From an uncultured Alphaproteobacteria bacterium (GTDB lineage Bacteria; Pseudomonadota; Alphaproteobacteria; CAAHEQ01; UBA3637): 64,000 bases of DNA. The stretch is taken from positions 15,916 through 79,915 of the forward strand of contig CALXXX010000019.1 in assembly GCA_944392795.1 (NCBI GenBank), read 5' to 3'. Shown in pieces: positions 5,863 through 41,166 of the stretch; the first letter of the stretch is position 1; each line of letters starts with the position of its first letter. The notes under the pieces are model-generated. The model saw only the letters and a program-made list of their open reading frames with translations, did no database searches and was not told the origin of the DNA. The translations under genes and the position numbers were made by a program.

Positions 5863-6221
5863 GTCAGAAGGTCAGGCAATCGCTGAGCAGTTTCATGCTT
5901 GGAGGAAAGTCCGGACTTCCTGGGAATAGAGTGACGGTTAACGACCGCCCGGGGCGACCCGAGGGAGAGTGCCACAGAAAATAAACCGCCTGTCTGTCGG
6001 CAGGTAAGGGTGAAACGGCGAGATAAGAGCTCACCGCTTTTCCGGTAACGGAAAAGGCAAGGTAAACCCCACTCGAAGCAAGACCAAGAAAGCGGCTCTG
6101 ATTAAATTCAGAAGGGACTGTTCCCATCCCGCCCAATAGGTAGGTCGCAAGAGGCGTTCAGTAATGGACGTCCTAGATGAATGATTGCCCGAGACAAAAT
6201 CCGGCTTATCGACCTTCTGAC
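5863..6221 (+). ncRNA. rnpB: RNase P RNA (bacterial type A)
   Basis: Universal motifs read directly: GGAGGAAAGTCCGGACTTCC, GCCACAGAAAA, CAGGTAAGGGTGAAACGGCGAGATAAGAGCTCACCG, GGTAAACCCCACTCGAAGCAAGACCAA, CTAGATGAATGATTGCCC, ATCCGGCTTATCG. The terminal P1 pairing is GTCAGAAGGTC...GACCTTCTGAC. The region contains only a spurious antisense ORF. Confidence 0.9.
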
Positions 6222-6222
6222 T

Positions 6223-7218: not shown

Positions 7219-7327
7219 AACGCCTCCTTTTTTTCTTTTATAAAACAATTTTATTCGGAAAGCAAACGAGAAAATACTTGCGACTCAAAAGAAGTCCGTT
7301 ATAATGAGGCTAAAGAGGTTTTAAAAG

Positions 7328-15007: not shown

Positions 15008-16336
15008 TCAAATAGTTTCTCCGGATAAGCTACTGGCAGTGGCAGCAGAAATATGTAATGTGACAATATCTCCCAGCCTGTCTTCCGGCAAAGAGACATG
15101 TACATTCTGAAGATAAGGGCTATAACCGTTGAGTTGCCCTTTTTGTTTGCCGCGTTCTGTAAGCAGAACAGGCAAATTTTTGCCGACAAAAGTTTGATTA
15201 TAGCTTTTTTGTAATTCCAAAAGTTTTGCTTGTAAAATTGAGAGGCGTTCTGTTTTAATAGCCTCTGGAACTTGATTTTTCATGAGACTAGCAGGAGTTC
15301 CGGGTCTTGGAGAATATTTAAAAGAATAACTTTGAGCATAGCGAACTTTATCTACCACAGCCAATGTTTGTTCAAAATCTGAATCGGTTTCGCCCGGGAA
15401 ACCAACGATAAAATCGGAAGAAATCGCGATATCCGGTCTGGCCTTACGTAATTTTTCAACGACTTCGAGATATTGCGCGACACAATAGCGACGGTTCATC
15501 TCTTTGAGGACTTTATCACTTCCGGCTTGAATAGGTAGGTGAATATAAGGCATTAACTTTGGAATATCTCGATGAGCCGCAATCATTTCATCCGTAATAT
15601 CGACTGGATAACTGGTTGTATAACGAATGCGTAAAAGGCCATCCATCTCAGCCAAACGTTCAATGAGTTGAGCTAAATGCCAAGTCTTACCATCAAGGCC
15701 TTCGCCATGCCAGCAGTCCACATTTTGTCCAAGCAGCATAATTTCTTTAGCTCCCGTATCAACTAATGCTCGTGCTTCGTTTAAGACAGCTTCAGCAGAG
15801 CGAGAGTACTCGCACCCTCGCGTATAGGGAACGACACAGTAAGAGCAAAAATTATCACATCCTTCTTGAATAGCTAAGAACGCCGTGCATCCATGAGAAG
15901 TTGGTTGAGCTAAAGCGTCAAATTTTTCAATACTGGTAAATTCGGCGATAGTTTTACGACCATTTTTACGATTGAATTGTGTGATAAGCTCTGGCAATTT
16001 ATGATATGACTGAGGTCCAACGGCAATATCGACACTATGTGCTTTTTTTAAAAAAGCGTCCCCCAAAGCTTGTACGACACATCCGGCGACTGCAATCAAT
16101 GTTTCTTGACCTTTCTTTTTGCGTTCTTGTTTGATTTCCTGAAAGCGTCCAAGGCAAGAAAATACTTTATCAGCTGCCTTTTCTCGAATATAACATGTGT
16201 TGACCATCAACAAATCTGCTTCTTCAGGTTTTTGAGTTTCTTCATAGCCTAGGATGGCTAACGCATCCAGTATTCGTGTACTGTCGTAGACATTCATTTG
16301 ACAGCCCATGGTATTCATAAAAACTTTTTTAGTCAT
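15008..16336 (-). CDS. miaB: tRNA-2-methylthio-N6-dimethylallyladenosine synthase
   Basis: MTTase N-terminal Cys triad. Radical-SAM motif CDNFCSYCVVPYTRG. C-terminal TRAM domain. Confidence 0.92.
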   Translation of the reverse strand: MTKKVFMNTMGCQMNVYDSTRILDALAILGYEETQKPEEADLLMVNTCYIREKAADKVFSCLGRFQEIKQERKKKGQETLIAVAGCVVQALGDAFLKKAHSVDIAVGPQSYHKLPELITQFNRKNGRKTIAEFTSIEKFDALAQPTSHGCTAFLAIQEGCDNFCSYCVVPYTRGCEYSRSAEAVLNEARALVDTGAKEIMLLGQNVDCWHGEGLDGKTWHLAQLIERLAEMDGLLRIRYTTSYPVDITDEMIAAHRDIPKLMPYIHLPIQAGSDKVLKEMNRRYCVAQYLEVVEKLRKARPDIAISSDFIVGFPGETDSDFEQTLAVVDKVRYAQSYSFKYSPRPGTPASLMKNQVPEAIKTERLSILQAKLLELQKSYNQTFVGKNLPVLLTERGKQKGQLNGYSPYLQNVHVSLPEDRLGDIVTLHISAATASSLSGETI

Positions 16337-17078
16337 TCGTTTGTCCTTCGCCTGTTATGCGTTGTTTAAGTTTGCTGACTTCCAGCAATCGACGAGCGGG
16401 ATCCGGTTTTCGTCCACGAGGATAAAGTGTATCTGAAAAAGAAGCAAATTCTTTTTCGGAAAGGACATTTTTAGCCGTTTGTAGCAGTTTATCTTCTTTC
16501 CAGGCAGAGGCTTGTCGTATGGCTTGTTCTCGGGCAGACTTACCATATCGACTTTCTAATGTTGGTAAAAGGCGAACGGCTTCTGGGTCTTGTGTTGCGC
16601 CGGCGGGATAGAACCATTTATTATCGGCTTTTTCAGCGGCTAACAACATCCAAGCATAAGCAGACATTTCTCTTTTCTGAGGAGGTAAAACAGTATCAGT
16701 ATTTTGCGCTTTTAAATCTTGAATTTTATCTTCATATTCTTTTAAAGCGTTTTGTCCTGGCGCTCCCATGCGTTCTACTTCCATCATTAATTGAGCTAAT
16801 GCTCGTTGAGCAGAGGCTAAGCCATTTTCAGCGGCAAAACGATAGTAAAAGAGAGCCAGCATAATATTCTGTTGTGTTCCTGTCCCCGTTTGATACATTT
16901 TCCCCAAAGCGTATTGAGCATGTGGATCATTTTGTTCTTTTGCACAGTTTTCGTAAACTTGGCGAGCTTGTTTATGATGTCCGCGCTTTAAATAAGCATC
17001 TCCGAATAAACAAGCAGCATTTGCCGTTAAAGACAATATTGTAAAAGTTGAAAGGAATAACAGAAATCTTCTTTTCAT
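16329..17078 (-). CDS. Sel1/TPR-like repeat protein with signal peptide
   Basis: Sec signal. Sel1-like motifs (AQYALGKMYQTGTGTQQN...A..YYRFAAENG.ASAQRAL). Confidence 0.6.
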   Translation of the reverse strand: MKRRFLLFLSTFTILSLTANAACLFGDAYLKRGHHKQARQVYENCAKEQNDPHAQYALGKMYQTGTGTQQNIMLALFYYRFAAENGLASAQRALAQLMMEVERMGAPGQNALKEYEDKIQDLKAQNTDTVLPPQKREMSAYAWMLLAAEKADNKWFYPAGATQDPEAVRLLPTLESRYGKSAREQAIRQASAWKEDKLLQTAKNVLSEKEFASFSDTLYPRGRKPDPARRLLEVSKLKQRITGEGQTND

Positions 17079-17878: not shown

Positions 17879-17963
17879 TAAAGTATTGCTCTTTTTTTTA
17901 AAATGTTTTACTGTCTTTATACGATAAATGAAAATAAAGCATTTGACAAGGGTGAAATAGAAA

Positions 17964-18692
17964 ATGTTGACAAGGTCCTCTTTGTTGCCGGTTGTGGACT
18001 TTCATCGGGTCTTTTTGAAGTATGAGAATGGCCCGGAAGTGTTAAAGAATATCCAATTTTCATTGGAACGAGGCTCTTTTCATTTTGTCACGGGGGATAG
18101 TGGGGCCGGTAAAACAACTTTACTGAGCTTAATGTATTTAGATCAGCGTCCGACATCGGGTCGTATTCAACTTTTCGGTCAAGATTTATCTGAAGTCAAA
18201 CGTCGTAAGATGCCTCTTTTGCGGCGGAGAATCGGCGTTGTTTTTCAGGATTTTAGATTATTGGATTATTTGACAACCTTTGATAATGTTGCATTACCTC
18301 TTCGAATCATTGGGATGCGAGAATCGGAAATAAAAAAACGAGTTCTTGAACTGTTGGCGTGGGTTGGTCTTGAAAAGTGTGTTGATCAATTTCCCGTAAC
18401 GTTATCTGGCGGAGAAAAACAACGAATTGCGATTGCACGTGCAGTTATCAATCAACCGGATTTATTATTAGCAGATGAGCCGACTGGTAATGTAGATGAT
18501 GCAATGGCCGGAAGAATTTTGCGATTGTTTTTAGAGTTAAACCGTCAAGGAACAACACTTTTAATAGCGACACATAATCAGTCTTTGATCCGTCAATTTG
18601 GTATGCCGCAATTACATTTGGCTCAAGGTCATTTAGAGCTGATACCACCCGCTTTGAGTTATCCAACGGAGGAAAATGATGTTCAGCCGTAA
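17964..18692 (+). CDS. ftsE: cell division ATP-binding protein FtsE
   Basis: Walker A GDSGAGKTT. ABC signature LSGGEKQR. Walker B LLLADEPTGN. Confidence 0.9.
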   Translation: MLTRSSLLPVVDFHRVFLKYENGPEVLKNIQFSLERGSFHFVTGDSGAGKTTLLSLMYLDQRPTSGRIQLFGQDLSEVKRRKMPLLRRRIGVVFQDFRLLDYLTTFDNVALPLRIIGMRESEIKKRVLELLAWVGLEKCVDQFPVTLSGGEKQRIAIARAVINQPDLLLADEPTGNVDDAMAGRILRLFLELNRQGTTLLIATHNQSLIRQFGMPQLHLAQGHLELIPPALSYPTEENDVQP

Positions 18693-19572
18693 ACGAGCTT
18701 TACCTTTTCATGAAAAATCCAGTTTCTTTTTATCTTGGATGACAATGTTGATGGTTTTTATTGCCTCTTTAACATTGTTTGGTAGTTTAAGTTTAACGAA
18801 TATTATCCAAACGTGGAACAGAGCTGTTGTTGGTTCTTTGACTATACAAGTTCCGACTTATGAAATTTCTGGAGAGCCTAGAGAAGAGGCCCTTCATACT
18901 GATTTAGAAGTTATTACCTCTCTTTTGGAAACAACGCCAGGTGTAGCCTCTTTTCATGTTCTGACGGATACAGAAATGGCTACTTTGATGGAACCATGGT
19001 TGGGAGTGCTTGATAAAGTTGAAGATTTGCCTCTTCCTAAGCTGATTGATGTCCGTTTTTCAAAAGAACAGCATTTTGATTTTGCCGCATTTCAACAAGC
19101 TTTAGAAACATCTGCTCCTGCGGCTCAGGTTGATTCCCATCGGATGTGGTTGACTCATTTGATTGAGATGGCTCGAGGCATTCAAAACATGATTTTATTT
19201 GTTTTAATTTTGTTAATTTTAACAACTTCTTTTACGGTTGTTTACACGACATTGTCGAGTCTGGCCGTTCAAGGGAGTGTTTTAAAGTTGCTTCATATGA
19301 TGGGGGCTAGAGATACTGCAATTGCTTTACAATATGCGGCGCGTAGTTTTGTAAAAGCATTTGTGGGCGGATGTGTTGGTTTTGTTTTAGCCTTACCCAT
19401 CGTGTGGGTTGTGTCAAGTATGATCAATCCCTTACAAGAGCCGCTTTTAGCTTCAGGTCGGTTTGAAGCCATACAATGGTTAATCGTGGCTTCTGTTCCG
19501 ATTTTGGCGGCTATTTTATCTTTTATAACCGCATTTATAACTGTGCTGAAAAATTTAAAGGCTGCAATATGA
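18676..19572 (+). CDS. ftsX: cell division permease-like protein FtsX
   Basis: Follows ftsE with overlap. N-terminal TM, periplasmic domain and a C-terminal 3-TM bundle. Confidence 0.8.
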   Translation: MMFSRKRALPFHEKSSFFLSWMTMLMVFIASLTLFGSLSLTNIIQTWNRAVVGSLTIQVPTYEISGEPREEALHTDLEVITSLLETTPGVASFHVLTDTEMATLMEPWLGVLDKVEDLPLPKLIDVRFSKEQHFDFAAFQQALETSAPAAQVDSHRMWLTHLIEMARGIQNMILFVLILLILTTSFTVVYTTLSSLAVQGSVLKLLHMMGARDTAIALQYAARSFVKAFVGGCVGFVLALPIVWVVSSMINPLQEPLLASGRFEAIQWLIVASVPILAAILSFITAFITVLKNLKAAI

Positions 19573-20144
19573 AGCTTAAGTCGTATGTTTTTTACGGAGG
19601 AGTTGTCGCATTAACCAGTTGGATTCTTGGCTTTTGTTTATTTTGCGTATATGCCTTTAGTTTAAAATATACAGCTGTTCCTAATGTGGATGCGATTGTG
19701 GTTTTGACCGGAGGAGCAGATCGTATCAGTCGAGCAGTTGATTTACTTCGAGAAGGGAAAGCAGAAATGCTGTTTATTTCTGGTGTTAATGCTAAAGTCT
19801 CGTTAGGCGCCTTGTTTTCCGAAGCCGATGATGATTTAATTCCACGAATACATCTGGGCTATCTAGCCGACAACACGTATGAGAATGCAATGGAAACAGA
19901 TATGTGGATTCAAAAAAATAATGTTCAATCAGTCCTATTGGTGACAAGCTTTTATCATATGCCTCGGAGCTTATTTGAGATTGAGACACGAATACCTCAG
20001 CTTGTTGTATATCCTTATCCAGTTTTCCCAAAGGAAATGGGGCCACAATTCGTTCGTACGCGTAGTTTTTGGTTATTATTTGTCGAATATAACAAGTTTT
20101 TAGTTGTCGTTTTAAGATCGTTTTTAAGGAGCTTATTTATATGA
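19569..20144 (+). CDS. YdcF/ElyC-like DUF218 family protein
   Basis: DUF218 motifs (IVVLTGG..R...A..L...G.....ISG; NTYENA). The ATG overlaps the ftsX stop (ATGA). Confidence 0.65.
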   Translation: MKLKSYVFYGGVVALTSWILGFCLFCVYAFSLKYTAVPNVDAIVVLTGGADRISRAVDLLREGKAEMLFISGVNAKVSLGALFSEADDDLIPRIHLGYLADNTYENAMETDMWIQKNNVQSVLLVTSFYHMPRSLFEIETRIPQLVVYPYPVFPKEMGPQFVRTRSFWLLFVEYNKFLVVVLRSFLRSLFI

Positions 20145-20860
20145 AAAAAGGCATCGTTGTTGTTCGTTCATTGATTTTTATGGTGTTGTTTTATAGTTAT
20201 ACTTTATTATGGGGTGTTGCGTGTGTAGTGGCCTTTTTTGGAACTGCAAAAGCCGCAAATTGGGTTCCCCGAAGTTGGGCGCACATGAATCGTTTTATGC
20301 TTCGTTGGGTGTGCGGCATACGGATAGAAATCAAAGGACTGGAAAATTTACCATCGCAAGATGGATATATTATTGCGTCGAAACACGAATCTGCGATGGA
20401 GACAGTTTTATTTCATATGATGGTTCCTAATGGCATTTATGTTTTGAAAAGAATATTACTTTGGATACCCATTGCCGGGTGGTATTTTTTTAAAACGGGG
20501 AGCATTGCCATAGATCGTAAAGCCGGAACAAAAGCTATGAGAGATTTATTGGAAAAATCTAAGGCAAGGTTAAGGGATGGGTTTAATATTATGATTTTTC
20601 CAGAGGGGACCCGTATGAAGCCGCGCGTTCCGACACATTATAATCCAGGTGTTGCTTTAATTTATGATGAATGTCATGTTCCGGTAGTTCCTGTTGCGTT
20701 GAATACAGGATATTTTTGGCCAAAAAATTCATTTTGGCGCTATCCAGGAGTGTGTACTTTTGAATTTCTCCCGCCGATAGAGCCTGGTCTGCCTCGGAGA
20801 GAGTTTTTGGTTAAACTGGAAAAACAAATAGAAGAAGCGTGTGCAGCGCTAAATCCTTGA
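20141..20860 (+). CDS. plsC: 1-acyl-sn-glycerol-3-phosphate acyltransferase family (lysophospholipid acyltransferase)
   Basis: Acyltransferase blocks (H(x4)E-like ..SKHESAMET; FPEGTR). Confidence 0.8.
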   Translation: MKKGIVVVRSLIFMVLFYSYTLLWGVACVVAFFGTAKAANWVPRSWAHMNRFMLRWVCGIRIEIKGLENLPSQDGYIIASKHESAMETVLFHMMVPNGIYVLKRILLWIPIAGWYFFKTGSIAIDRKAGTKAMRDLLEKSKARLRDGFNIMIFPEGTRMKPRVPTHYNPGVALIYDECHVPVVPVALNTGYFWPKNSFWRYPGVCTFEFLPPIEPGLPRREFLVKLEKQIEEACAALNP

Positions 20861-21968: not shown

Positions 21969-22445
21969 ATGAAAAATACGATTTCTTCACCAATTTTAGA
22001 TAATACATTTATTTTTGACCTGTTCCAAAAGAAAATGAGGCGTGTATGGAAACAAATTCGTACAACTGTAAATTTACAATCAACAGATTGCCAAGGGTAT
22101 TCGTTACTTCACATGTCTGTTTTTTTAGGGCTGCGACCTTTGAGTGAATTTTTGATCCGTCAAGGAGCAGATGTTAATGCACGTAGTAAGACAAAATTTA
22201 CACCTCTTCATTTGGCCGCGCATCAGGCAAATGAAGAAATGATTAAAATGTTATTGGCCTATGGTGCACGAACCGATTTGAAAGATTATCTTCATCGGAC
22301 ACCTTTAGCGTACATGAAAACACTTGACTTCTCGGATAAAAGAAACGAAGCACGCGCTTGCATGGAATTATTAAAAAGAACGGTTCGCATTCAATCACAT
22401 GAAACAGCTCATTTAAGGAATAGGTTGTTAACGCATACACGTTAA
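21969..22445 (+). CDS. ankyrin-repeat protein
   Basis: Canonical ANK repeats (GYSLLHMSVFLGLRPLSEFLIRQGADVNARSKTKFTPLHLAAHQANEEMIKMLLAYGARTDLKD..RTPL). Start at ATG 21969, preceded by GGAGG. Confidence 0.7.
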   Translation: MKNTISSPILDNTFIFDLFQKKMRRVWKQIRTTVNLQSTDCQGYSLLHMSVFLGLRPLSEFLIRQGADVNARSKTKFTPLHLAAHQANEEMIKMLLAYGARTDLKDYLHRTPLAYMKTLDFSDKRNEARACMELLKRTVRIQSHETAHLRNRLLTHTR

Positions 22446-24361: not shown

Positions 24362-24951
24362 TGACAAAACAGCTGATTTTTGCTTCTCGGAACGCGGGTA
24401 AGATTAAAGAAATTCGTTCTTTGTTGAAGCCGTTAGGTGTTGAAGTTCTATCGGCAATTGAAGCCGACTTACCAGAGGTTGAAGAAACAGGAGAAACTTT
24501 TGCAGAAAATGCCTCATTAAAAGCATCTTCTGCCGCTTTATCAGCAGGCCTTCCGGCATTAGCGGATGATTCTGGATTATGTATTCATGCTTTAAAAAAT
24601 GCGCCTGGTGTTCAAACAGCTAGATATGCACAGAAATGTGGAGGCTATGATTCAGCTTTTGCGGATATTTTAAAAAAGTTGGAGGGTAAGTCTGATTGGA
24701 CAGCTCATTTTTCTTGTGCTATTGCCTTAGCGTTTCCGAATGGAACGATAAAGACTTATGAAGGAAAATGTGAAGGGCGTATTGTTCAACCCAAAGGGAT
24801 AGACGGTTTTGGATTCGATCCGATTTTTGAGCCGAAAGGATATACGCAAACTTTTGCTGAATTACCGGAAGAGGTTAAAAACCAAATTTCTCATCGTGGT
24901 CGTGCGATGAGAGCCTTTTTGGCTGATTTTGAAAATCTTATTGAAATGTGA
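24361..24951 (+). CDS. rdgB: non-canonical purine NTP pyrophosphatase (dITP/XTP diphosphatase)
   Basis: Ham1 family motifs (FASRNAGKIKE; DDSGLC; GFGFDPIFEP). Conserved rph-rdgB adjacency. Confidence 0.9.
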   Translation: MTKQLIFASRNAGKIKEIRSLLKPLGVEVLSAIEADLPEVEETGETFAENASLKASSAALSAGLPALADDSGLCIHALKNAPGVQTARYAQKCGGYDSAFADILKKLEGKSDWTAHFSCAIALAFPNGTIKTYEGKCEGRIVQPKGIDGFGFDPIFEPKGYTQTFAELPEEVKNQISHRGRAMRAFLADFENLIEM

Positions 24952-25405
24952 TGGTTAAGGTTTTGTTTTCCCCGCTGGACGTGCAATTACCACTTCCAGT
25001 TCCACAAGTGACGCTTGTTGCATAAGGCCAATCACGCGCAGTCAAAAGGGTGCACTCATCGGCTGGTATTTCAGACGCACTGACAGTTAAAGAGTCTGGG
25101 GTGCTGCTGAGACAATAAGAACCATCAAAAGGATTTGCGTTCGGAACATTATCAGTACATCCTTCTGGGAAAATATCATTTTCGCAAAGTTGTTTTAAGT
25201 TGATGGCGGGATAAGAGCGTCTCCAAGAATAAAGTTTAGCGGTTTCGTCACCTATATAAGAAATGGAATCATGTAACTGACTGCTTTTAAGTTTCAAACG
25301 AGCTTGTCCGAAGCCGGCTAAAGCGCCAATAGAAATAATACCGATAATCATTAAAACGGCCAGCATTTCAATCATGCTTCGTCCATATTGTGTCGCTTGT
25401 GTCAT
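24938..25405 (-). CDS. pilin-like protein with prepilin-type N-terminal cleavage/methylation-like domain (paralog 1)
   Basis: Short leader MTQATQYG, then RSMIEMLAVLMIIGIISIGALAGF (Glu at +5, hydrophobic helix), which is the class-III signal architecture. Strong RBS AAAAGGAGAAAAAAT before ATG 25405. Cys-containing C-terminal globular part. Confidence 0.6.
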   Translation of the reverse strand: MTQATQYGRSMIEMLAVLMIIGIISIGALAGFGQARLKLKSSQLHDSISYIGDETAKLYSWRRSYPAINLKQLCENDIFPEGCTDNVPNANPFDGSYCLSSTPDSLTVSASEIPADECTLLTARDWPYATSVTCGTGSGNCTSSGENKTLTITFQ

Positions 25406-25430: not shown

Positions 25431-26567
25431 TTAACGCGAAAGCGCTTGAAATACAACTTCTTTTTCAGAAGGGCACCCTAGGTTTAGCCATATTTCTTTA
25501 TAGTATTTAAAAGCCTGGTTTAACTCTTTTTCAGTTGTTTTCCCTTGTCGAAGCATGTCTTCTACCCTAAAGGGGAACTTAGGTTCTTTCCATTTTTGAA
25601 TATCTTGAAAGCTTTTTTGTGTCATGTGACGGCGACAGATGAGTTCTTTTCGCTGAACGGCTTGAGCTCCATAAAGAAAAAGGGCTTTTTGTCTGTTTGG
25701 TTCTTGTAACGCTTTTCTGAGAGCTGTTAAAGCTCGTCGTTCTTTGTTTTGGAGCCATGTCGGTGCGGGACTTTGAGGGATAAAAGCACACAAACGTGCA
25801 ATGATATCCGGTTTGTTTAATAAATTTAATCGTCTTTCTCGTGCAATCACTCGACGTAAAGCTTTAAAATTCCAAGGTCCGCTAATCATTTCTTTTAAAA
25901 CGCCTGTTCGAGCCATATAACGTAAAACGATATCCGCTCGTGGTAAAGCGAAGATTTTCATCATTTCATCATGTAGCCTTTGCAAAGAAAGGATACTTAT
26001 TTTTTTGCGTGCTGTGTGACAAGCGTGTAAGGCTTTTTTATCCGGTTTTCCTTTTCCGAAGCGCCCCCAAAATCTGAAAAAGCGCAAAATACGCAAATAG
26101 TCTTCTTCGATACGTTTTGTTGGTTCACCGATAAAACGAACATGTCCTTTTTTTAAATCTCGCAACCCATGAAAAAAATCTAAAATATCACCAGTCTGAT
26201 TCATATAGAGAGCGTTTATTGTAAAATCTCGACGAGCTGCATCTTCCTTGATTGAAGTGCCAAAGGTAACTTCAGCATGTCGACCATCGGTGTGAATGTC
26301 TTTCCGAAAAGTTGTTAATTCCACATGATGCTTTTTATAAATAACCGTTACGGTTCCAAAAGCTAAACCGGTCGGAACCACACAACAACCGGCAGCTTTT
26401 AACTTTTTAGTCGCTTCCTCGGGTAAAAGAGGGGTTGCCATATCAATATCATTTCCGGAGATATGCAGAATTTTATCTCGAACGGCTCCTCCGACGAAGT
26501 AAACCTGTTCAGCAAGTGTTTCTAAAACTTTTTGTGCGGCTTTATTGTCTAAAAAATTTTTGTTCAT
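25431..26567 (-). CDS. cca: CCA tRNA nucleotidyltransferase (poly(A) polymerase/CCA-adding family)
   Basis: Pol-beta-like NT motif (..YFVGGAVRDKIL.....DIDMAT). Confidence 0.85.
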   Translation of the reverse strand: MNKNFLDNKAAQKVLETLAEQVYFVGGAVRDKILHISGNDIDMATPLLPEEATKKLKAAGCCVVPTGLAFGTVTVIYKKHHVELTTFRKDIHTDGRHAEVTFGTSIKEDAARRDFTINALYMNQTGDILDFFHGLRDLKKGHVRFIGEPTKRIEEDYLRILRFFRFWGRFGKGKPDKKALHACHTARKKISILSLQRLHDEMMKIFALPRADIVLRYMARTGVLKEMISGPWNFKALRRVIARERRLNLLNKPDIIARLCAFIPQSPAPTWLQNKERRALTALRKALQEPNRQKALFLYGAQAVQRKELICRRHMTQKSFQDIQKWKEPKFPFRVEDMLRQGKTTEKELNQAFKYYKEIWLNLGCPSEKEVVFQALSR

Positions 26568-29252: not shown

Positions 29253-29666
29253 TTATTCTGTGTAAGTGAAAGATACTGTAACGTCTTCTTGATTTCCGCA
29301 GATATCTGTACTTCCAGTAAACAGAGCGTCGTTAGCATGGATTGTATGTGTTTTTTCAAGCTTGGGTAAGACGGCTCGACAAACCTTCCATGGAACTTGG
29401 GTTGTCATGGTGAAGCGATAAGGTGTTTCTATTGTGATATTCAGGATGTCTACATCGGATAGCTTATAAGAGCTGCCGGCAGAGAGGCCTCGCCAATCAT
29501 CGCGCAGGACCATTTCTTTTGTCGCATAGCTGACTTCTGAGGCAATATGAATAGCTTGTCCACTGGTTCTTGCTTGAACTAATCCCCATAGGCCGCCGAT
29601 TGACAAAGCTCCCATGATGGCTAGGACAGCTAACATTTCCAGCATTGAACGTCCGAGTTGTGTCAT
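29253..29666 (-). CDS. pilin-like protein with prepilin-type N-terminal domain (paralog 2)
   Basis: Leader MTQLG, then RSMLEMLAVLAIMGALSIGGLWG. The RBS context (AAAGGAGAAAAAATGAC) is nearly identical to that of paralog 1. Confidence 0.6.
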   Translation of the reverse strand: MTQLGRSMLEMLAVLAIMGALSIGGLWGLVQARTSGQAIHIASEVSYATKEMVLRDDWRGLSAGSSYKLSDVDILNITIETPYRFTMTTQVPWKVCRAVLPKLEKTHTIHANDALFTGSTDICGNQEDVTVSFTYTE

Positions 29667-29754: not shown

Positions 29755-30609
29755 TTACTTTTTGATTAAATTTTCAGAAAAATCAGCAGCTTCTAAGGTT
29801 ATATCAGGCTGCATTTGATGTCTAAACCATGTCGATTGTCGTTTAGCATAATTGCGGGTCATTTGTTGAGCGTGTTCAATCGCTTTGCTTTCAGATAAAG
29901 AACCTTCCAGAACTTGTGTTAATTCGGCTACGCCGATAGCTTGAAACACACCGCCGGTTTTGTTTGGATTTTTATTTAACAACTCGGCGACTTGTTGTAA
30001 GGCGCCTGCGGCCATCATCTGTGTGAAACGGTAATTACATTGTATATACAGTTTTTCTCTTGGGGGAAGAATGAGAAAGGTGTAAAAATCTCCTGAAATC
30101 AATGGCTTTGATGGAATTGATTGCCATTCGAATATTGTTTTTCCTGTTGTTAGTTCAACTTCTAAGGCACGACGCAATCGTTGTGGGTCTGAAAAACGTT
30201 TATCTCTGACTTTCGCTTGCACCTCATCAATAGGCATTTGACGAACGGAACGGCGAATTTCTTCAGGAATGTCGGGAAGAGAAGTTAAACCTTTCGTCAG
30301 AGCCTTGATATAAAGTCCTGTTCCTCCAACAAAAATAGGCGTTTCAATGTCTGAAATAATTTGTTTGACTTTTTCCAGCCATAAGGCGACGGAACTTTTT
30401 TGAAAAGCATTTAAAAAACCATAGAGTAAATGAGGAATATTCTCTTGCTCTTCTGGCGTGGGGCGAGCCGTTAAAATGGGAACGTCTTCATAGACTTGTA
30501 AAGAATCTGCATTGATGATTGTCCCGTTGACGGCTTTGGCTAAACGGAGACTGAAAGCAGATTTACCGGAAGCGGTTGGTCCGGCGACCACATACATTTT
30601 TCTTTTCAT
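29755..30609 (-). CDS. miaA: tRNA dimethylallyltransferase
   Basis: P-loop GPTASGKS and an IPT-family core. Confidence 0.9.
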   Translation of the reverse strand: MKRKMYVVAGPTASGKSAFSLRLAKAVNGTIINADSLQVYEDVPILTARPTPEEQENIPHLLYGFLNAFQKSSVALWLEKVKQIISDIETPIFVGGTGLYIKALTKGLTSLPDIPEEIRRSVRQMPIDEVQAKVRDKRFSDPQRLRRALEVELTTGKTIFEWQSIPSKPLISGDFYTFLILPPREKLYIQCNYRFTQMMAAGALQQVAELLNKNPNKTGGVFQAIGVAELTQVLEGSLSESKAIEHAQQMTRNYAKRQSTWFRHQMQPDITLEAADFSENLIKK

Positions 30610-30668: not shown

Positions 30669-31415
30669 ATGACAGATAGATATGCTTTTAGATATGTTGA
30701 AACAACTGTTCAGTCGTCTTGGCGGAACAGCTTTTGGGCTGAGGGGAAAAACCTTTTGGATGACGTGTCCGCACGATTTAAGGGGGAAAAAGTTATTTTC
30801 AAAGATATATCCGCACCGGCCCTTTACTGGGGTGTTTTAACGCCTGTCTGCGAAGAAAAACCAGCCTTTGAACTGGTTGATAGCTATGGTGCCGATGCGG
30901 TTCGATTAGCAATGCTTCAACCGGGAGGTCTGTCCGAACAGACATTGACGGGAGCTTGGCGACTGATGAACGCATTATGGTTGGGGCTTCGGGATAAAAC
31001 AGAAATGGTTTCTGATTGGAATGATAAGGAATTGGTTCCGGCTTTGCATGCTTTACAGAAAGAGGACTTTTCTGATTTGTTGATACACCTAAAAAGTCTT
31101 TTTCACAAAGGTCCAAGAGCATCTTTGCTTCCGTTATTATATCCGTTTATACCACACTTAATAACGCATTTGATTCCGGATATACAGGCACATATGCATG
31201 CTTTTTCTCAAAAATGGAAAACTCAATGTTTGCCGCCCGTCTTATTTATTGAAGTAAACGGAGAACGTCTGGCTGATTTTGTGCCGAATAGTTTAGAAAA
31301 CGAGGAAATAAAAAAAGAAGCCTTGTCTTTTCCAGTCGTTCAACATAAAATAAGTGGACGTCCAGTACGTGATGTTAAAATAATACCGTTAAAGGGAGTG
31401 AATTTTGTCGTTTAA
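30669..31415 (+). pseudogene. leuS: leucyl-tRNA synthetase 3' remnant (about 250 codons, post-KMSKS / anticodon-binding / C-terminal domain only)
   Basis: ..SYGADAVRLAML.. matches the conserved YGAD(T/A)(V/L)RL motif that follows KMSKS in class-I LeuRS. The C-terminal ..VNGE.......V........E.......V.......GR.V..V..IP.K.VN.VV matches the LeuRS C-terminus. The catalytic domain is absent. Position upstream of lptE-holA is the canonical leuS locus. Confidence 0.6.
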
Positions 31416-33212: not shown

Positions 33213-34199
33213 TTATTTATCAAAAAAACCGACGACTTCAATGTGTTTTGAATAAATAAATTGATCAATGGGAATGACTTTTTGCAGCATCCATCCGCCG
33301 GCAGTTAAAAGAGCTGCATCACGTGCAAAAGTTTGAGGATTACAGGAAACCATTATAATGCGTTTCAAATCAAGGTCTGCCAATATTTGACATTGTGCTT
33401 CAGCACCAGCACGAGGCGGATCCAAAACAACAGCCTCTACATTTGAGAACTCATGCGATGTTAACGGATTACGGAATAAATCTCGTTTTTCGGCAGGTAT
33501 GTTTTGCTGCTGGAGTGCAGCAATCGATTCGTCAGTAGAATCATACCCTTTAACGATAAAACCAGCCTGATGCAACGGTCGTGTAAAAGTTCCTTGTCCA
33601 CAAAACAAATCTAAGACATGTGAACAGCCGTTAACGCCTTTTAACACAAGCTTGACTAGAGTTTCTTCTCCAATTTGAGACGGTTGTAGAAAAACATCTG
33701 GAGGAAAAGGCAGTGTATGGATCTGATAAATCAGTTCATCGTGATAATGAAAACGCACAATGGAATTATTTTGGCAGAAAGTTGTGAGTGCTTCTAACTT
33801 TGCAAGAGGAAGTTTATGTTCTTTGTCTTTCCAAACAATATCGATCCCCCAGTCAGTGTCTGTGACGGCAATATCTCCTGAAGAATGCAACGCTTTAACA
33901 AGTTCTCTGAGTGATGGTATTAGTTTTTCCAAAGAGGGTGTCAGAACTAAGCAGGAAGTAATAGGGATAATTGTGTGGCTTTTAAAGGCGTTAAATCCCA
34001 ATACTCCATTTTTCATAGCAAAAGTTGCGCGCCGACGTGTTCCTGACGGAAGAGCGATGACATCATCGACTGGCGGTGTTAAATCTCGATGTCGTAAAGC
34101 CTCTATAACGACATTCTTTTTCATTATAAGATAATCAGATGGTTGTAAGTCTTGAAATAAACATCCGCCACATTTGCCAAAAAAAGGACATTGTCTCAT
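33213..34199 (-). CDS. class I SAM-dependent RNA (uracil-5-)-methyltransferase family protein (RlmD/TrmA-like, no TRAM domain)
   Basis: N-terminal Cys cluster CPFFGKCGGC. SAM fold motif DLFCGQGTF. Catalytic ..DPPRAG. and the C-terminal nucleophile region. Confidence 0.75.
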   Translation of the reverse strand: MRQCPFFGKCGGCLFQDLQPSDYLIMKKNVVIEALRHRDLTPPVDDVIALPSGTRRRATFAMKNGVLGFNAFKSHTIIPITSCLVLTPSLEKLIPSLRELVKALHSSGDIAVTDTDWGIDIVWKDKEHKLPLAKLEALTTFCQNNSIVRFHYHDELIYQIHTLPFPPDVFLQPSQIGEETLVKLVLKGVNGCSHVLDLFCGQGTFTRPLHQAGFIVKGYDSTDESIAALQQQNIPAEKRDLFRNPLTSHEFSNVEAVVLDPPRAGAEAQCQILADLDLKRIIMVSCNPQTFARDAALLTAGGWMLQKVIPIDQFIYSKHIEVVGFFDK

Positions 34200-34930
34200 T
34201 TATCGCTCCGAGTTTTGGCCGCAATCATACCGGCAAAGTACATGAAGAAAAAGAATAAATAAACACGTACGATTAAATCAAAGATGAGCAATAGTAAATT
34301 TACAGACCAAAAAAGTGTGGATTGTCCTAAATCGACTAAAGAAAAAGAAATCCAATTTAAAAATTGTCCCCAATAGGAGAAAAATAAACTTAATACAACA
34401 GCAGCACCTGTAATATCTAGGACATGTAGCCAGTTTTTTTTGAAATATTCAAAAGTGTGCCGGAATGCTGGTAATTTATTTTCAGGAAGTCGTTGAATGA
34501 AAAGAAGGTTGTAAGGAGTAACAATTATCAGCAAGTAAGCCAGTAAAATAAAAGCAGCTAAATGAGGAGTCGTCATTGTAAAGGGAAGAATCAAGCAAAT
34601 TCCCAGAACGGTTAATCCGGCTTGACAAAAGAGGAAAGATAAACCGGTAGTAAAGAGCTTTTTAAAAGATATTGCTTGCCAGGGATTTTTTTTGCTTTCC
34701 ATAACATGAACAGAAAACATTAATCCATGTCCTATAAAGAAAACAAAAAGGAACAGAAAGATGAAAGAAGTTATCAATTGCTGAATGAATAAAGTTTCTA
34801 TTGAAAAATCACGGAAAAAGGCTCGAGAAAAAAGGAAAAAGAAGAAAGCATAAACAAAGAGCAAACAGGCCGTCCAAACGAGAATAGAACGTCCCCAAGT
34901 TTCTTTTAACATTTTTTTTAAAAAAGACAT
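34196..34930 (-). CDS. hypothetical polytopic membrane protein (Phe/Leu-rich)
   Basis: Start at ATG 34930, preceded by AGGAGG. 6-7 predicted TM helices. No family recognised. Confidence 0.5.
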   Translation of the reverse strand: MSFLKKMLKETWGRSILVWTACLLFVYAFFFFLFSRAFFRDFSIETLFIQQLITSFIFLFLFVFFIGHGLMFSVHVMESKKNPWQAISFKKLFTTGLSFLFCQAGLTVLGICLILPFTMTTPHLAAFILLAYLLIIVTPYNLLFIQRLPENKLPAFRHTFEYFKKNWLHVLDITGAAVVLSLFFSYWGQFLNWISFSLVDLGQSTLFWSVNLLLLIFDLIVRVYLFFFFMYFAGMIAAKTRSDK

Positions 34931-34940
34931 AGTTCCTCCT

Positions 34941-36077
34941 TTAAAGTTTATGAAAATAATTATCTTGCTCTTTGTTGTTGTGTGCATTTAAAAAGATATC
35001 ATATTGTTCTTCGATAGGAGCTAGACGCTCAGGATTGGAAGCTTTAACATCACTTTGAGGTGTTTTTTGTTTTTGATAGACAAAGCCTGTTTGAGCAAAT
35101 AAATGAGCGATTGTTGCAAAATAAGCGCTCCATAGGAAGAAAAAGAAAAATAAACCAAAAACATTTATCATCAGAGGAATGATTAAATCGTTTGACCACA
35201 TAGGTAGATAATGTGTTAATATCAGCCATAAAAACGCAAACGGGATTGTCGGCAGGAAAAACCATAATCTGGCCGGAGAAAATAAGACCATCATTAACAC
35301 GTAAGATACCATAAAAAAGAAGCAAACAGTTAAATTATCTGAATGTTTGAGAACCAGGATAATTAAAGTTTGTAATCCAGCAAAGATAAATGTCGTCAGG
35401 AAAGTCCAACCTAATAATTCGGCAAAGGTTCGTCTATTCTCAAAAACGGTCTTCAGATTAACCACATTTTTAAAAGCGAACCGTTGAGCAAATAAAGGAT
35501 AAGCATAGGCGAAATAAACTAAGACACCGATGGCGACACAAAGGAAAATCCATATTCCAAAGGGTTGTGGCAAAAAGTCGCCTGCAGCAGAGGAGGGGGG
35601 CGCCGTTAGAGTGAAAATACGTCTGACTTGTTCATCGAGTAAAGCATAAATTCCGGCGAGGACAGGAAAGCTGAAAAGTAGAGCTTTCCCAAGTAGTTTT
35701 AGGAAAAACAGGAAATGAATTGTCGGCGGATATTGAAACAAATCTCTTTTGGCTCTGGCGAAATAATAATTAAAGAAAATTAAATGTATTAAAGCCATAA
35801 AGAAAGACATTAAAACGACTATTTGCAAGAAAATGAAAATTAAATATGTGTTTTCTGAAATAATGACAAAAAAGCCGAAGATAAATTGTAATAAGGCTGT
35901 TTCGGAATCGAATGGTATAGAAATAAGATACCTGAATGCAGGAACTTTCATTAACACTCCCCAACTGATGGAAGCATTTAAGAAAAAGAAAATAATAAAC
36001 ACCCAAGTCATCCAAAAGCCGCCTTGAAAGGTGCGTTTATGAACTGCAAATTTTGCGGCATCATAAAATGAAAGCAT
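34941..36077 (-). CDS. hypothetical polytopic membrane protein (Phe/Leu-rich)
   Basis: Start at ATG 36077, preceded by GGAGG. About 10 TM helices. Tandem with the previous gene. Confidence 0.5.
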   Translation of the reverse strand: MLSFYDAAKFAVHKRTFQGGFWMTWVFIIFFFLNASISWGVLMKVPAFRYLISIPFDSETALLQFIFGFFVIISENTYLIFIFLQIVVLMSFFMALIHLIFFNYYFARAKRDLFQYPPTIHFLFFLKLLGKALLFSFPVLAGIYALLDEQVRRIFTLTAPPSSAAGDFLPQPFGIWIFLCVAIGVLVYFAYAYPLFAQRFAFKNVVNLKTVFENRRTFAELLGWTFLTTFIFAGLQTLIILVLKHSDNLTVCFFFMVSYVLMMVLFSPARLWFFLPTIPFAFLWLILTHYLPMWSNDLIIPLMINVFGLFFFFFLWSAYFATIAHLFAQTGFVYQKQKTPQSDVKASNPERLAPIEEQYDIFLNAHNNKEQDNYFHKL

Positions 36078-36256
36078 TTTTCCTCCGTTTTTTTTCGTAT
36101 CACTATACTTGTTTTTAGTCTTGTTTTCAACAAAATAACACATAAAGTCGGTTTTGCTTTGTTTAAAAAGATAAAAATCATGTTTCTTTCGTAATAAAAT
36201 ATTGACGAATGTGAGAAAAATGCTAGGATAGGAGGAAAAGAAAGGAATAGTGAAAA

Positions 36257-37741
36257 ATGACAACTGAAAATAGTAATTTAGCTGGTTTGGATCAACGTAC
36301 CATTCGGATAGAGAAGCTTAAAAAACTAGAAAATATGGGTATTAATGCGTACCCTCATATTTTTAATCCGGATTTTACATCTAAAGCTTTAAATGAAAAG
36401 TATGCAACATTGGCGAATGAAGAACAAACAGAAGATGAAGTGAAAGTTGCAGGGCGTATTCGTGCTATTCGTAATTCTGGTATGTTTATGGATTTATATG
36501 ACGATACCGGGAAAATCCAAATTTTTTCGTCTTTAGAGAACTTGCCACAAAGTGAAAAAGATGTGTTAGCATTGTTGGATTTGGGAGATATTATAGGTGT
36601 GACTGGGACTGTTCGCCGCACGAAACGGGGAGAGCTTTCTGTTGCAACAAAGCATTTAGATGTTTTGGCTAAGTCATTACAGGTTTTGCCGGAAAAATTC
36701 CACGGTTTACAAGATCAAGATACAAAATATCGTCAACGTTATTTAGATATGATGATCAATCCTGACACAACACGAACGTTGATTATGCGGAGCCAAATTA
36801 TTTCAGCTATTCGTGAATTTTTGAACGGATTAGGTTTTTTGGAAGTGGAAACGCCTATTTTGCATCCTATTTTGGGGGGAGCAAATGCGAAGCCTTTTAT
36901 TACACATCATAATACATTAGATATGGATTTATATTTGCGAATTGCTCCGGAATTGTATTTAAAAAGACTGATTATCGGTGGCTTGCCGGCCGTATATGAA
37001 ATTGGTCGTAATTTCCGCAACGAGGGAATGGATACGCGGCATAACCCGGAATTTACGATGATGGAATTATATTGGGTTTATAAAGACTATAATGATATGA
37101 TGGATTTGTTCGAACAAATTGTTCAGTATGCCGCTATGAAAGTGTTGGGAACAACAACAGTCTCTTTTGATGGAAAAACTTTCGAGTTGGGAGGACATTG
37201 GCCTCGTCGTTCGATGTTGGATTTGGTTAAAGAAGAAACAGGTATTGATTTTGATGCTTTTGAGACAAATGGAGAGGCCATTGAGGCTGCTAAAAAATTG
37301 CATGTAGAGGTTCCAGAAAATGCTTCTTGGGGACTTGTTGTCTCTACTGTTTTTGAAGAAAAATGCGAACATAAACTGATGGGACCGATTTTCGTTATTG
37401 ATCATCCTAAGGATATTTCACCGTTAACAAAAGAACACCGTGCTAATAAACGTTTGGTGGAACGGTTTGAGCCTTTTATCAATACTTGGGAGGTCGGTAA
37501 TGCTTATTCAGAACTTACCAACCCGCTGGACCAACGCGAGCGGCTGGAAGAGCAAGTCAAAGCCCGTGAAGCTGGCGATGATGAGGCAAATATGATGGAT
37601 GAAGATTTCGTCACGGCGTTGGAACATGGTATGCCGCCCACAGGGGGACTTGGCATGGGGATTGATCGGATTGTGATGATTTTAACCGGTTCTTTATCTA
37701 TTCGGGATGTTATCGCTTTCCCAACAATGCGTAAAAAATAA
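36257..37741 (+). CDS. lysS: lysyl-tRNA synthetase, class II
   Basis: OB anticodon-binding domain plus class-II motifs 1-3 (..FRNEG....HNPEFT..E.Y; GGLGMGIDR). Confidence 0.92.
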   Translation: MTTENSNLAGLDQRTIRIEKLKKLENMGINAYPHIFNPDFTSKALNEKYATLANEEQTEDEVKVAGRIRAIRNSGMFMDLYDDTGKIQIFSSLENLPQSEKDVLALLDLGDIIGVTGTVRRTKRGELSVATKHLDVLAKSLQVLPEKFHGLQDQDTKYRQRYLDMMINPDTTRTLIMRSQIISAIREFLNGLGFLEVETPILHPILGGANAKPFITHHNTLDMDLYLRIAPELYLKRLIIGGLPAVYEIGRNFRNEGMDTRHNPEFTMMELYWVYKDYNDMMDLFEQIVQYAAMKVLGTTTVSFDGKTFELGGHWPRRSMLDLVKEETGIDFDAFETNGEAIEAAKKLHVEVPENASWGLVVSTVFEEKCEHKLMGPIFVIDHPKDISPLTKEHRANKRLVERFEPFINTWEVGNAYSELTNPLDQRERLEEQVKAREAGDDEANMMDEDFVTALEHGMPPTGGLGMGIDRIVMILTGSLSIRDVIAFPTMRKK

Positions 37742-39993: not shown

Positions 39994-41166
39994 ATGTCGT
40001 TAATAAGGAAATTATTTTTCAAGTCTTGTTGTGGACGAAGTATGATAGAAATGCTTGGCATGTTGGCGATTGTGTCACTGCTAAGTTTAGGGTCATTTTG
40101 GGGGATAAGACAGCTTCGTATTCATGAAAAGGCAAACGAGCTTGCCTTTACTTGTACTCAAATCAGTCAAGACGTGTTGACTTCTGAGAAGATACAAAAT
40201 CTTCCGGAAGGGAGCTTGATTGAAGAAGTTGATTCAATACAAGTTTTCTCTGTCTCCTCAGATGCTTTTGTATTATCTCTGCCGCCGGTATCTGAGCCAA
40301 TTTGTCGTGTTTTATTGCCCTTATTTCAAAATGATTATCGTGTCTGGATAGAAGATACATTATGGAATGGAAATGAAGCTGCTTGTGTCGGGGAAGCTAT
40401 TCAAATTCAATTAGAAAGAAGTATCTCCGGTATATGGGATGAGCTGGATTCTTGTGAGGCGGGAAAAGTTCCTTTATTCTCTGGAGGGTGCGGATGTCCT
40501 GCAGATAAACCATTGTTAGTTGAGGGAGAATGTTCTGCGTCTTGTCCTCCTGAGCAAAAAGCGGGAAGTAATGGATTATGTTGTGCGGAACTGAATGAAG
40601 AGGGGAAGTGTTGTCAAACATTTTATGATTATGATAAGGCCACGGTCTGTTGCGAAAAAGGGGAAACAGCCTATACAAATGCTTATAACAAAGCTATGTG
40701 TTGTCCGGCCTCTTCAAAATTATCTGAGGTTGGCGTTTCTTGTTGGGGTGAGCAAATAAAAGCGTGTTGTCCCGTTGGTTTTTCTCCGCTGATGAAAAAC
40801 TGTAATCAACCTAAATGTTGTGTAGATGAACATTTCTATGATCTTTCAAAAAATGTTGTCTACTCGATCTGTTGTGCAGATGGATATATTGGGTACTCTC
40901 CTGAGGCTAATAGCTATTGTTGTCCTGTTCATTTAAATTATCATTTAGATATTGTTATCTCAAAAGATGAAGGATGCTGGTATGTTGATTTGAAAACTTG
41001 TTGTCCTGAGGGATATAGTGGCTATCTTTCTGAAACAGATATGAATAATCGATGTTCCCGAGAAAAAAGATGTTGTCCCGTTCAAAATTTGGTAGATGGT
41101 CATTGTTCTGGCGGCGATATTGAGACCTATAGAGGTGCTCCAAACGGTCAAATGATAGATGGTTGA
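39994..41166 (+). CDS. pilin-like protein (paralog 3) fused to a large paired-cysteine (CC-dyad) C-terminal domain
   Basis: Leader ..KSCCG, then RSMIEMLGMLAIVSLLSLGSFWG. A C-terminal region of about 250 aa carries at least 12 CC dyads (CCAELNEEGKCC..VCCEKGE..MCCPASS..ACCPVGF..KCCVDEH..ICCADGY..YCCPVH..TCCPEGY..RCCPVQN). The ORF track starts at GTG 39982; the first ATG is at 39994. Confidence 0.6.
   Translation: MSLIRKLFFKSCCGRSMIEMLGMLAIVSLLSLGSFWGIRQLRIHEKANELAFTCTQISQDVLTSEKIQNLPEGSLIEEVDSIQVFSVSSDAFVLSLPPVSEPICRVLLPLFQNDYRVWIEDTLWNGNEAACVGEAIQIQLERSISGIWDELDSCEAGKVPLFSGGCGCPADKPLLVEGECSASCPPEQKAGSNGLCCAELNEEGKCCQTFYDYDKATVCCEKGETAYTNAYNKAMCCPASSKLSEVGVSCWGEQIKACCPVGFSPLMKNCNQPKCCVDEHFYDLSKNVVYSICCADGYIGYSPEANSYCCPVHLNYHLDIVISKDEGCWYVDLKTCCPEGYSGYLSETDMNNRCSREKRCCPVQNLVDGHCSGGDIETYRGAPNGQMIDG

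Follow-up and report, generated by a model that had tools for sequence, protein, structure and literature searches.

Candidate type IVb prepilins with arginine at mature position +1 in uncultured gut Alphaproteobacteria

We identified three genes in a 64-kb stretch of DNA from an uncultured alphaproteobacterium (hereafter, the window) that encode probable prepilins, which we name pil1, pil2 and pil3. Within the type IVb pilin family (bundlin/TcpA/CofA/PilS-like), these proteins likely belong to a branch specific to their lineage. The family that they define is a large, undescribed type IVb pilin branch, characterized by a short leader and by an Arg at +1 that is invariant among the listed matches. 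A literature search found no paper on the motif, or on pili in this clade (RF32/Alphaproteobacteria).

Three dispersed genes and their N-terminal signal

The original prediction described three dispersed open reading frames, each encoding a leader that ends in Gly, followed by RSM(I/L)EML and a hydrophobic helix of ~20 residues. We verified the coordinates and the motif (Table 1) and found an uncharged stretch of 19–22 residues past Glu+5 in each protein. Class III signals are defined by a leader that ends in Gly (or Ala) at −1 (PMC10191384, PMC4471445). The leaders of pil1, pil2 and pil3 – 8, 5 and 14 amino acids, respectively – are neutral/hydrophilic and all end in Gly at −1, and each predicted mature protein has Ser+2 and Glu+5 (R-S-M-I/L-E). 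A six-frame regular-expression scan of the window found G-R-S-M-[IL]-E-M-L at these three sites only, against a chance expectation of 5.2e-6 calculated from the window's residue frequencies.

Table 1. Positions of the pil genes, their parts and adjacent tRNA genes in the window (↓, predicted cleavage site).
Feature	Position	Strand	Description
pil1 prepilin	24938..25405	-	155 aa; MTQATQYG↓RSMIEMLAVLMIIGIISIGALAGFGQA... (begins RSMIEML); open reading frame and motif
pil1 leader MTQATQYG	25405-25382	-	predicted cleavage G8↓R9; Glu at +5
cca (tRNA nucleotidyltransferase)	25431..26567	-	listed with Pfam PolyA_pol in the gene tables for identical loci
pil2 prepilin	29253..29666	-	137 aa; MTQLG↓RSMLEMLAVLAIMGALSIGGLWGLVQA... 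(begins RSMLEML); open reading frame and motif
pil2 leader MTQLG	29666-29652	-	predicted cleavage G5↓R6; Glu at +5
miaA (tRNA isopentenyltransferase)	29755..30609	-	Pfam IPPT in gene tables
pil3 modular prepilin	39994..41166	+	390 aa; MSLIRKLFFKSCCG↓RSMIEMLGMLAIVSLLSLGSFWGI... (begins RSMIEML); open reading frame and motif
pil3 leader (14 aa)	39994-40035	+	predicted cleavage G14↓R15
pil3 pilin module	to ~residue 145 (~40428)	+	aligns with pil2
pil3 C-terminal module	~40441-41163	+	Cys-rich, CC-repeat, beta-rich; ~240 residues

Standard detectors miss this signal. The N_methyl model PF07963 scores pil1 at 15.9 bits (cutoff 21.2) and gives no score for pil2 or pil3. Both detectors that the original prediction had proposed applying come out negative: TIGR02532 scores reach 14.2 and 15.8 (the latter for pil2) against a cutoff of 16.3, and the three proteins all fail the PilFind regular expression. 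An in-silico R9F substitution in pil1 alone raises its PF07963 score to 23.1 bits, past the cutoff, showing that the Arg hides the pil1 signal from this model. A bona fide E. coli bundlin-type pilin is also sub-cutoff, at 17.7 bits. The PilFind motif, [GAS]-[ACFGILMNPQSTVWY]4-[DE], excludes Arg at +1 (PMC3244431), and pil1, pil2 and pil3 pass once R is permitted; the motif thus rejects them because of Arg+1. We also rejected a GspH/type II secretion pseudopilin assignment, for which the sole match covers the N-terminal helix and scores 17.9 bits, far short of the cutoff of 80.

We found that pil1 is a conserved single-copy ortholog between cca and rdgB. The gene order cca-pil1-rdgB-rph-grpE is shared by related loci (L001, L002, L173, L177, L179) and persists in relatives whose pil1 identity falls to 39–54%, with GRSMIEML kept in all of the pil1 orthologs. 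The original prediction had placed pil1 26 nt downstream of cca in the same orientation; strand and adjacency stand, and the distance from the cca stop (25431-25433) to the pil1 ATG is 25 nt. The two genes are probably co-transcribed, and in L177 the stop codon of cca and the start codon of the pilin gene overlap. We assigned the pil1 start to the ATG at 25405 in preference to an upstream TTG because this ATG has a GGAG ribosome-binding site, and the orthologs and independent gene calls all begin at the equivalent ATG. The protein consists of an alpha-1 helix and a small alpha/beta head. Two cysteines in its C-terminal region, Cys118 and Cys141, are invariant in 70 family sequences and have aligned cysteines in pil2 and pil3. 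These positions are where pilins usually have the D-region disulfide, and a Cys118-Cys141 bond may form here.

The pil2 gene follows miaA on the same strand after a gap of 88 nt. The intergenic region contains a promoter-like site (29712-29684); counts of such sites in the window were no higher than in shuffled sequence, and the promoter and terminator scans together gave no clear unit structure. This gene is lineage-specific, being missing from the corresponding site in two related loci (L179/L180). NCBI assembly GCA_949282845.1 and many metagenomes contain a protein identical to pil2; exact-protein matches identify that assembly and several metagenomes as the same species as the window. The exact-protein matches to the window came from overlapping contigs, none longer than 54 kb, that belong either to this species or to a sister species.

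We consider pil3 best described as a modular pilin. Its pilin module is similar to the pil2 head (28% identity, E 3e-15), and the CC-rich module that follows has no Pfam match. The homolog search recovered only two pil3 homologs (94% and 59% identical), the more distant of which likewise has a 14-aa leader. The AlphaFold2 (AF2) model of pil3 – a helix at 17–63 and a small sheet, then beta-hairpins – is of low confidence (pLDDT 58.9) and was left out of the fold search. On their own, the heads of pil2 and pil3 gave no match to pilin-head models; judged from sequence, the tie of these two proteins to type IVb pilins runs solely through the common N-terminus and the similarity of the two to each other.

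The original prediction also inferred recent paralogy, citing a nearly identical ribosome-binding site and 5' coding sequence in pil1 and pil2. Neither part held. Only GGAGAAAAAAT and ATGACACAA around the start are common to the two genes, their Arg-Ser codons differ (CGA AGC versus CGT TCA) and the proteins are 33% identical, so the pil1/pil2 similarity is no sign of recent duplication. Gene positions kept across species, strong purifying selection and saturated synonymous sites likewise argue against recent paralogy. In a sister species pil1, pil2 and pil3 all occupy matching positions, and G-1, R+1, S+2 and E+5 are intact in the orthologs of all three. Because dS is saturated in this comparison, only dN relative to neighbouring genes is usable: values of 0.109 for pil1 and 0.117 for pil2, and 0.325 for the faster-evolving pil3, compare with 0.047–0.247 for neighbouring housekeeping genes. 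That the pil genes are old, fixed and constrained argues for a retained function and, by extension, a retained machine.

The three mature N-termini in the window are only 50–57% identical in pairwise comparisons, compared with ~100% in relatives, which makes co-assembly into one filament less obvious here. The window lineage also has shorter heads than its relatives (132–147 versus ~195 residues) and fewer, more divergent copies. Pfam scans of ~40 larger open reading frames showed that the window otherwise contains the housekeeping genes of a diderm; Lgt, Lnt, LolA, LptE and an OMP beta-barrel point to an outer membrane, in keeping with a pilus that depends on a secretin. Ankyrin and Sel1 proteins are also encoded in the window.

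A family related to type IVb pilins

The family is large. A word-indexed search using a family alignment yielded 2365 clusters at 90% identity, and an exhaustive HMMER search returned 6422 representatives at 50% identity with E ≤1e-3 (1129 at ≤1e-10). Across 185,579 species genomes we observed QxGRSM[IL]EM in more than 591 places, 561 of them confirmed, and nearly all confirmed sites came from metagenome-assembled genomes of uncultured gut/rumen Alphaproteobacteria. Members are abundant in human-gut and rumen metagenomes, and those listed carry the NCBI name 'hypothetical protein'.

Conservation centres on the predicted cleavage site. Arg+1 is present in every listed match that has a G-x4-E motif, and G-1, R+1, S/T+2 and E+5 are conserved in 119/119 motif-bearing matches listed from the word-indexed search and in 136/136 listed from HMMER. 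In a logo of short-leader members, Gly-1, Glu+5 and Ser or Thr+2 each occur in 223/223 sequences, and the family consensus reads N-[Q/E]-S-G↓R-S-M-I-E-M-L-G-V-L-A-I-I-G-V-L-S-V-G-G-I-A-G-Y-S-K-A-M. Among the bacterial pili with solved structures, no residues other than Thr/Ser2 and Glu5 are invariant (PMC10710030), and the Arg+1 family retains both. Leaders are mostly 6–12 aa in the family (5, 8 and 14 aa in the window), shorter than the ~15–30 aa of classical type IVb prepilins, though leader length is not discriminatory for the type IVb class (PMC10191384).

Some genomes carry many copies. Counting within sampled loci only, and thus as lower bounds, we found at least 28 full-length copies in JAFUSA01 and at least 21 in JAZNJJ01. 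The first 28 mature residues of these paralogs are identical (median), whereas their heads are 38–52% identical (median). Codons for identical residues nonetheless differ between paralogs at 38–52% of sites within the relatives' genomes and at 53–71% in the window, and the differences in the relatives include CGN/AGA and TCN/AGY switches. Such identity of peptide with different codons shows that the N-terminus is held by purifying selection, and these codon differences rule out recent paralogy or gene conversion as its source. A few members are long and modular (pil3, 390 aa; P0133, 664 aa; P0201, 614 aa).

Consistent with a type IVb identity, a family profile built from 70 members matched TcpA (3.5e-11), bundlin BfpA (1zwt; 2.9e-9) and the CFA/III pilin CofA (4.3e-6) in the PDB, with a value of 0.014 for S. 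Typhi PilS. In the alignment, R+1 coincides with the Met1 that begins mature TcpA, and E+5 with Glu5. The PilS model PF08805 scores pil1 at 19.6 bits against a cutoff of 22, while PF08805 and the Bundlin model PF05307 are both above cutoff in many family members and in the operon pilins described below. In its AF2 model (pLDDT 82.7, pTM 0.68), pil1 has a 52-residue helix (7–58) and a four-stranded sheet, the predicted structure being the pilin "lollipop" fold. The best PDB matches of this model in Foldseek were CofA (9iuf, 3s0t) and TcpA (8uhf, 1oqv), followed by C. difficile PilA1, at an identity to the CofA and TcpA structures of only 14–17%. The claim that the three proteins resemble type IV pilins but have an atypical Arg+1 was thus borne out by the TcpA/bundlin profile matches, the CofA/TcpA fold and same-motif pilins in relatives' pilus operons.

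Pilus operons in related genomes

The original prediction noted that the window lacks a prepilin peptidase, secretin or pilus ATPase gene, and our searches agree. Using phmmer with clade-specific queries against all stop-to-stop open reading frames ≥60 aa, together with the Pfam scans, we found no gene in the 64-kb window for a TcpQ, secretin, PilO, PilP-like, ATPase, platform, PilT-like or A24 peptidase protein.

Relatives encode such a machine. We observed a type IVb operon with two GRSMIEML pilins in six species-representative genomes (L030, L031, L035, L050, L073, L075). It encodes, in order, a TcpQ-domain protein (PF10671), a secretin (PF00263; best NCBIfam match TIGR02520, PilN-family type IVB, 2e-80), PilO (PF06864), a PilP-like protein (TIGR03021, weak), a GspE-class ATPase (PF00437, 3e-65), a GspF-class platform (PF00482), a bundlin-like membrane protein that lacks the motif, the GRSMIEML pilins and, last, a PilT-like ATPase. 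A metagenome scan with the operon ATPase recovered 80 loci, mostly from human gut, with the same order and 1–3 motif pilins; the operon and motif pilins occur together on ~60 metagenome contigs. In L073, 6 kb separate the pilus operon from homologs of the window genes at 17961-20857, and the opposite flank is not conserved. The original prediction had proposed substrates of a divergent type IV machine; we find that type IV substrates are likely, but the operon in relatives is of the ordinary BFP/PilN type.

In the alphaproteobacterial loci examined, there was no A24 peptidase within 10 kb of the ATPase. The single example that we observed, in L046 (14016-14729), is encoded 2.7 kb from tandem pilins and has the Peptidase_A24 domain only, without A24_N_bact, a domain that scores 80.6 bits in an E. 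coli BFP-like control peptidase. The suggestion that Arg+1 would affect N-methylation fits this one peptidase of the clade, which has no methylase domain, though the loss of methylation itself is inferred.

Comparison with known systems places these operons closest to several type IVb pili. Bundlin of the enteropathogenic E. coli BFP shares head homology with the family (Pfam Bundlin, PDB 1zwt), and the best tblastn plasmid matches, in BFP and related plasmid clusters (e.g. NZ_CP024150.1), are BfpA and 'type 4 pilus major pilin'. BFP-type clusters agree with the alphaproteobacterial operons in both their parts and the order of these: TcpQ-domain protein, secretin, PilO-type protein, small protein, ATPase, platform and a second, retraction-type ATPase. 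The E. coli plasmid cluster runs pilin, TcpQ, secretin, PilO2, small open reading frame, ATPase, platform, second ATPase, A24 peptidase and transglycosylase. Pilin genes thus lead the operon in E. coli BFP, whereas they follow the platform gene in the alphaproteobacterial operons. The E. coli peptidase is encoded inside the operon and has A24_N_bact, unlike the peptidase from L046. An E. coli prepilin (L176) has a leader of ~37 aa and Leu+1, in contrast to the 5–14 aa and Arg+1 of the window proteins, and the alphaproteobacterial relatives have dozens of additional pilin genes scattered round the chromosome.

TcpA of the Vibrio cholerae toxin-coregulated pilus (TCP) and CofA of enterotoxigenic E. 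coli CFA/III provide the top profile match (TcpA) and the top fold matches (9iuf, 8uhf, 3s0t). The TCP pilin has no Pro at +22 and a continuous alpha-1 (PMC10710030); the Arg+1 family logo likewise has Ser/Thr+2, Glu+5 and no Pro at +22. In TcpA and CofA the first mature residue is Met1, and its amine forms a pair with the Glu5 of the adjacent subunit (PMC10710030); in comparison, Arg1 brings a second positive charge.

The family and its operons resemble the thin pilus of IncI plasmid R64/Salmonella Typhi in their matches to the Pfam PilS_N, secretin (TIGR02520), PilO (PF06864) and PilP (TIGR03021) models. The alphaproteobacterial cluster differs in being chromosomal, with housekeeping flanks and an extra PilT-like ATPase, and no shufflon-type PilV was seen in it. 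The first mature residue of R64 PilS is Trp, not Arg. Modular pilins such as PilB/PilC of Streptococcus sanguinis resemble pil3, P0133 and P0201 in joining a large extra module to a pilin module, but the module of pil3 is a Cys-rich CC-repeat without a Pfam match, in a diderm type IVb context.

Proposed assembly, alternatives and significance

Type IV filament subunits are inserted by SRP/Sec, cut after Gly-1 by an A24 peptidase at the cytoplasmic face, and extracted and polymerized by the ATPase and platform (PMC10191384, PMC4471445). We consider it likely that pil1, pil2 and pil3 are type IVb prepilins that follow this route, with cleavage between Gly and Arg and assembly by a BFP/PilN-type machine encoded elsewhere in the genome. 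They would enter the inner membrane N-in through the class III signal peptide, and an A24 aspartic prepilin peptidase would cut after the invariant Gly-1, leaving a mature pilin that begins Arg1-Ser2-Met3-Ile4-Glu5. The clade's peptidase appears to lack the N-methyltransferase domain, and the mature N-terminus may thus stay unmethylated. The conserved alpha-1 N-terminal helix would then allow membrane extraction and polymerization by a machine presumed to comprise a TcpQ-domain protein, a PilN-like secretin, PilO, a PilP-like protein, a GspE-class ATPase, a GspF-class platform and a PilT-like retraction ATPase. In such a filament, pil1 may act as the deeply conserved core pilin and pil2 as a lineage-specific pilin, with pil3 a modular pilin that would show its Cys-rich, probably adhesive, module on the filament.

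We weighed two unlikely alternatives of similar standing. In the first, the class III signal would serve as a display or secretion tag for cargo or surface proteins, which the prepilin peptidase would process and the type IVb machine would handle as a short pseudopilus or surface array (cf. the Sulfolobus bindosome and the type II pseudopilus). Copy numbers as high as those in the sampled loci of JAFUSA01 and JAZNJJ01, diverse heads with long extra modules in pil3, P0133 and P0201, genes scattered amid housekeeping genes, and the precedent of class III signals outside filaments (PMC4471445) would all suit such a role. Yet nearly all members share the small bundlin/PilS-type head (170–250 aa) rather than resembling enzymes or binding proteins, the PilT-like retraction ATPase of the operon is typical of dynamic pili, and an alpha-1 N-terminal helix conserved to identity is expected of a shared filament core.

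The second holds that the machine was lost in this lineage and that the proteins, cleaved or not, have been kept for some other role, in the periplasm and anchored to the inner membrane. A 64-kb window devoid of machinery fits this idea, as do the reduced and divergent copies of the window lineage relative to those of its relatives and the ankyrin and Sel1 proteins, which hint at a specialized host-associated lifestyle. We nonetheless regard it as improbable: 64 kb is a small fraction of a genome, G-1, R+1, S+2 and E+5 are intact in the three genes and their sister-species orthologs, dN is as low as in housekeeping genes, and a membrane-buried Glu+5 is hard to explain without processing and assembly.

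It is far less probable still that these are ordinary Sec signal-anchors or type I signal peptides resembling prepilins by chance – an idea that gains from the sub-threshold scores of curated prepilin HMMs and from an Arg whose place beside the hydrophobic core suits the positive-inside rule, but that conflicts with three motifs where chance predicts 5e-6, with the head homology and fold of type IVb pilins, with same-motif genes inside pilus operons and with the single R-to-F change that takes PF07963 past its cutoff. This reading, which the original prediction had itself raised, is effectively refuted by the TcpA/CofA fold, the operon context and the TcpA/bundlin profile matches.

For a type IVb prepilin assembled by a BFP/PilN-type machine, Arg1 should be a positive charge beside the N-terminal amine, in a filament core that is supposedly hydrophobic. 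We propose that Arg1 may contribute to the contact with Glu5, or help the clade's peptidase to recognize its substrate. More tentatively, Arg1 might mark a distinct assembly chemistry, in which the guanidinium and/or amine of an unmethylated Arg would pair with the Glu5 of the neighbouring subunit. Dozens of paralogs scattered over the chromosome, with one invariant alpha-1 stalk and diversified heads, might then be swapped or mixed within a single filament, to yield a combinatorial or variable repertoire of adhesive pili in gut and rumen Alphaproteobacteria.

Type IV pili are central to colonization, aggregation and DNA exchange, and the tools that find pilins all rest on the N-terminal signal. 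A charged residue at +1 leaves thousands of pilin-like proteins below Pfam/TIGRFAM cutoffs and outside the PilFind motif – a blind spot of these detectors. The complement of at least 28 copies in one genome is far beyond that usual for pilins. An Arg at mature +1 is charged, a residue type not known at this position in pilins. If Gly-Arg cleavage is real, it would widen the known substrate range of prepilin peptidases, and the structural question would become how an extra positive charge and an unmethylated N-terminus fit into the filament core.

Pilin paralogs and broken copies

At least 28 pilin paralogs of genome JAFUSA01 share one identical 29-residue N-terminus, GRSMIEMLGVLAIIGVLSVGGIAGYSKAM, a count drawn from 11 sampled loci (L016, L038, L040, L045, L051, L059, L063, L067, L068, L071 and L077). 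About half of the codons of this N-terminus differ synonymously among the paralogs. Pilin head fragments that lack the N-terminal motif were found at four loci (see table) and are probably truncated or frameshifted pilin copies. The homolog searches also returned a 130-aa protein from an ENA contig, P0003, in which an XseB-like N-terminus (PF02609) is fused to the C-terminal 96 residues of the window prepilin pil1 – probably an assembly chimera.

Genes in and near the type IVb pilus operon

All type IVb pilus operons of the clade contain a gene for a bundlin-like protein, flanked by the platform gene on one side and by the pilins on the other. This protein matches PF05307 (30.5 bits) and has a membrane anchor at its N-terminus, without the G|RSMIEML cleavage motif.

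The pilus ATPases of L030, L031, L035 and L075, which come from four different species-representative genomes, are 96–98% identical, reflecting either recent transfer of the operon between the species or species that are very close. Upstream of the L112 operon, two genes encode small proteins that both have a signal peptide and a pair of hydrophobic segments. Their resemblance to conjugative pilins of the VirB2/TrbC type, judged by eye, makes them candidates for such pilins.

Coordinates of features in the window and at sampled loci
Feature	Locus	Position	Strand
Ankyrin-repeat protein	window	9570-10646	
Ankyrin-repeat protein	window	21969-22445	
Sel1-repeat protein	window	16329-17078	
248-aa ORF	window	30669-31415	+
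Two polytopic membrane proteins	window	34196-36263	-
415-aa ORF	window	47730-48977	-
771-aa ORF	window	60183-62498	-
Bundlin-like protein	L030	8477-9178	
Bundlin-like protein	L112	12602-13177	
Bundlin-like protein	L031, L035, L050, L075, L093-L171		
Pilus ATPase	L030, L031, L035, L075	about 5700-7450	
Small protein	L112	1455-1892	-
Small protein	L112	1943-2281	-
Pilin head fragment	L038	7455-7703	
Pilin head fragment	L042	496-915	
Pilin head fragment	L043	6554-6985	
Pilin head fragment	L059	16376-16588	

Other genes of the window

At the site where leuS normally precedes lptE-holA, the window carries a 248-aa ORF that has no Pfam family and is kept in the sister species. It aligns only weakly with leucyl-tRNA synthetase, in that enzyme's C-terminal domain (residues 710-813 of 5ah5_A; E 0.016), and could be a LeuRS C-terminal domain, either a remnant or free-standing. 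Some large minus-strand ORFs of the window gave no convincing Pfam family: one of 415 aa, one of 771 aa and those of two polytopic membrane proteins; the sole Pfam match of the 771-aa ORF was a tiny Pex14_N. The ankyrin-repeat and Sel1-repeat proteins are encoded amid housekeeping genes, and their presence hints at a host-associated lifestyle.
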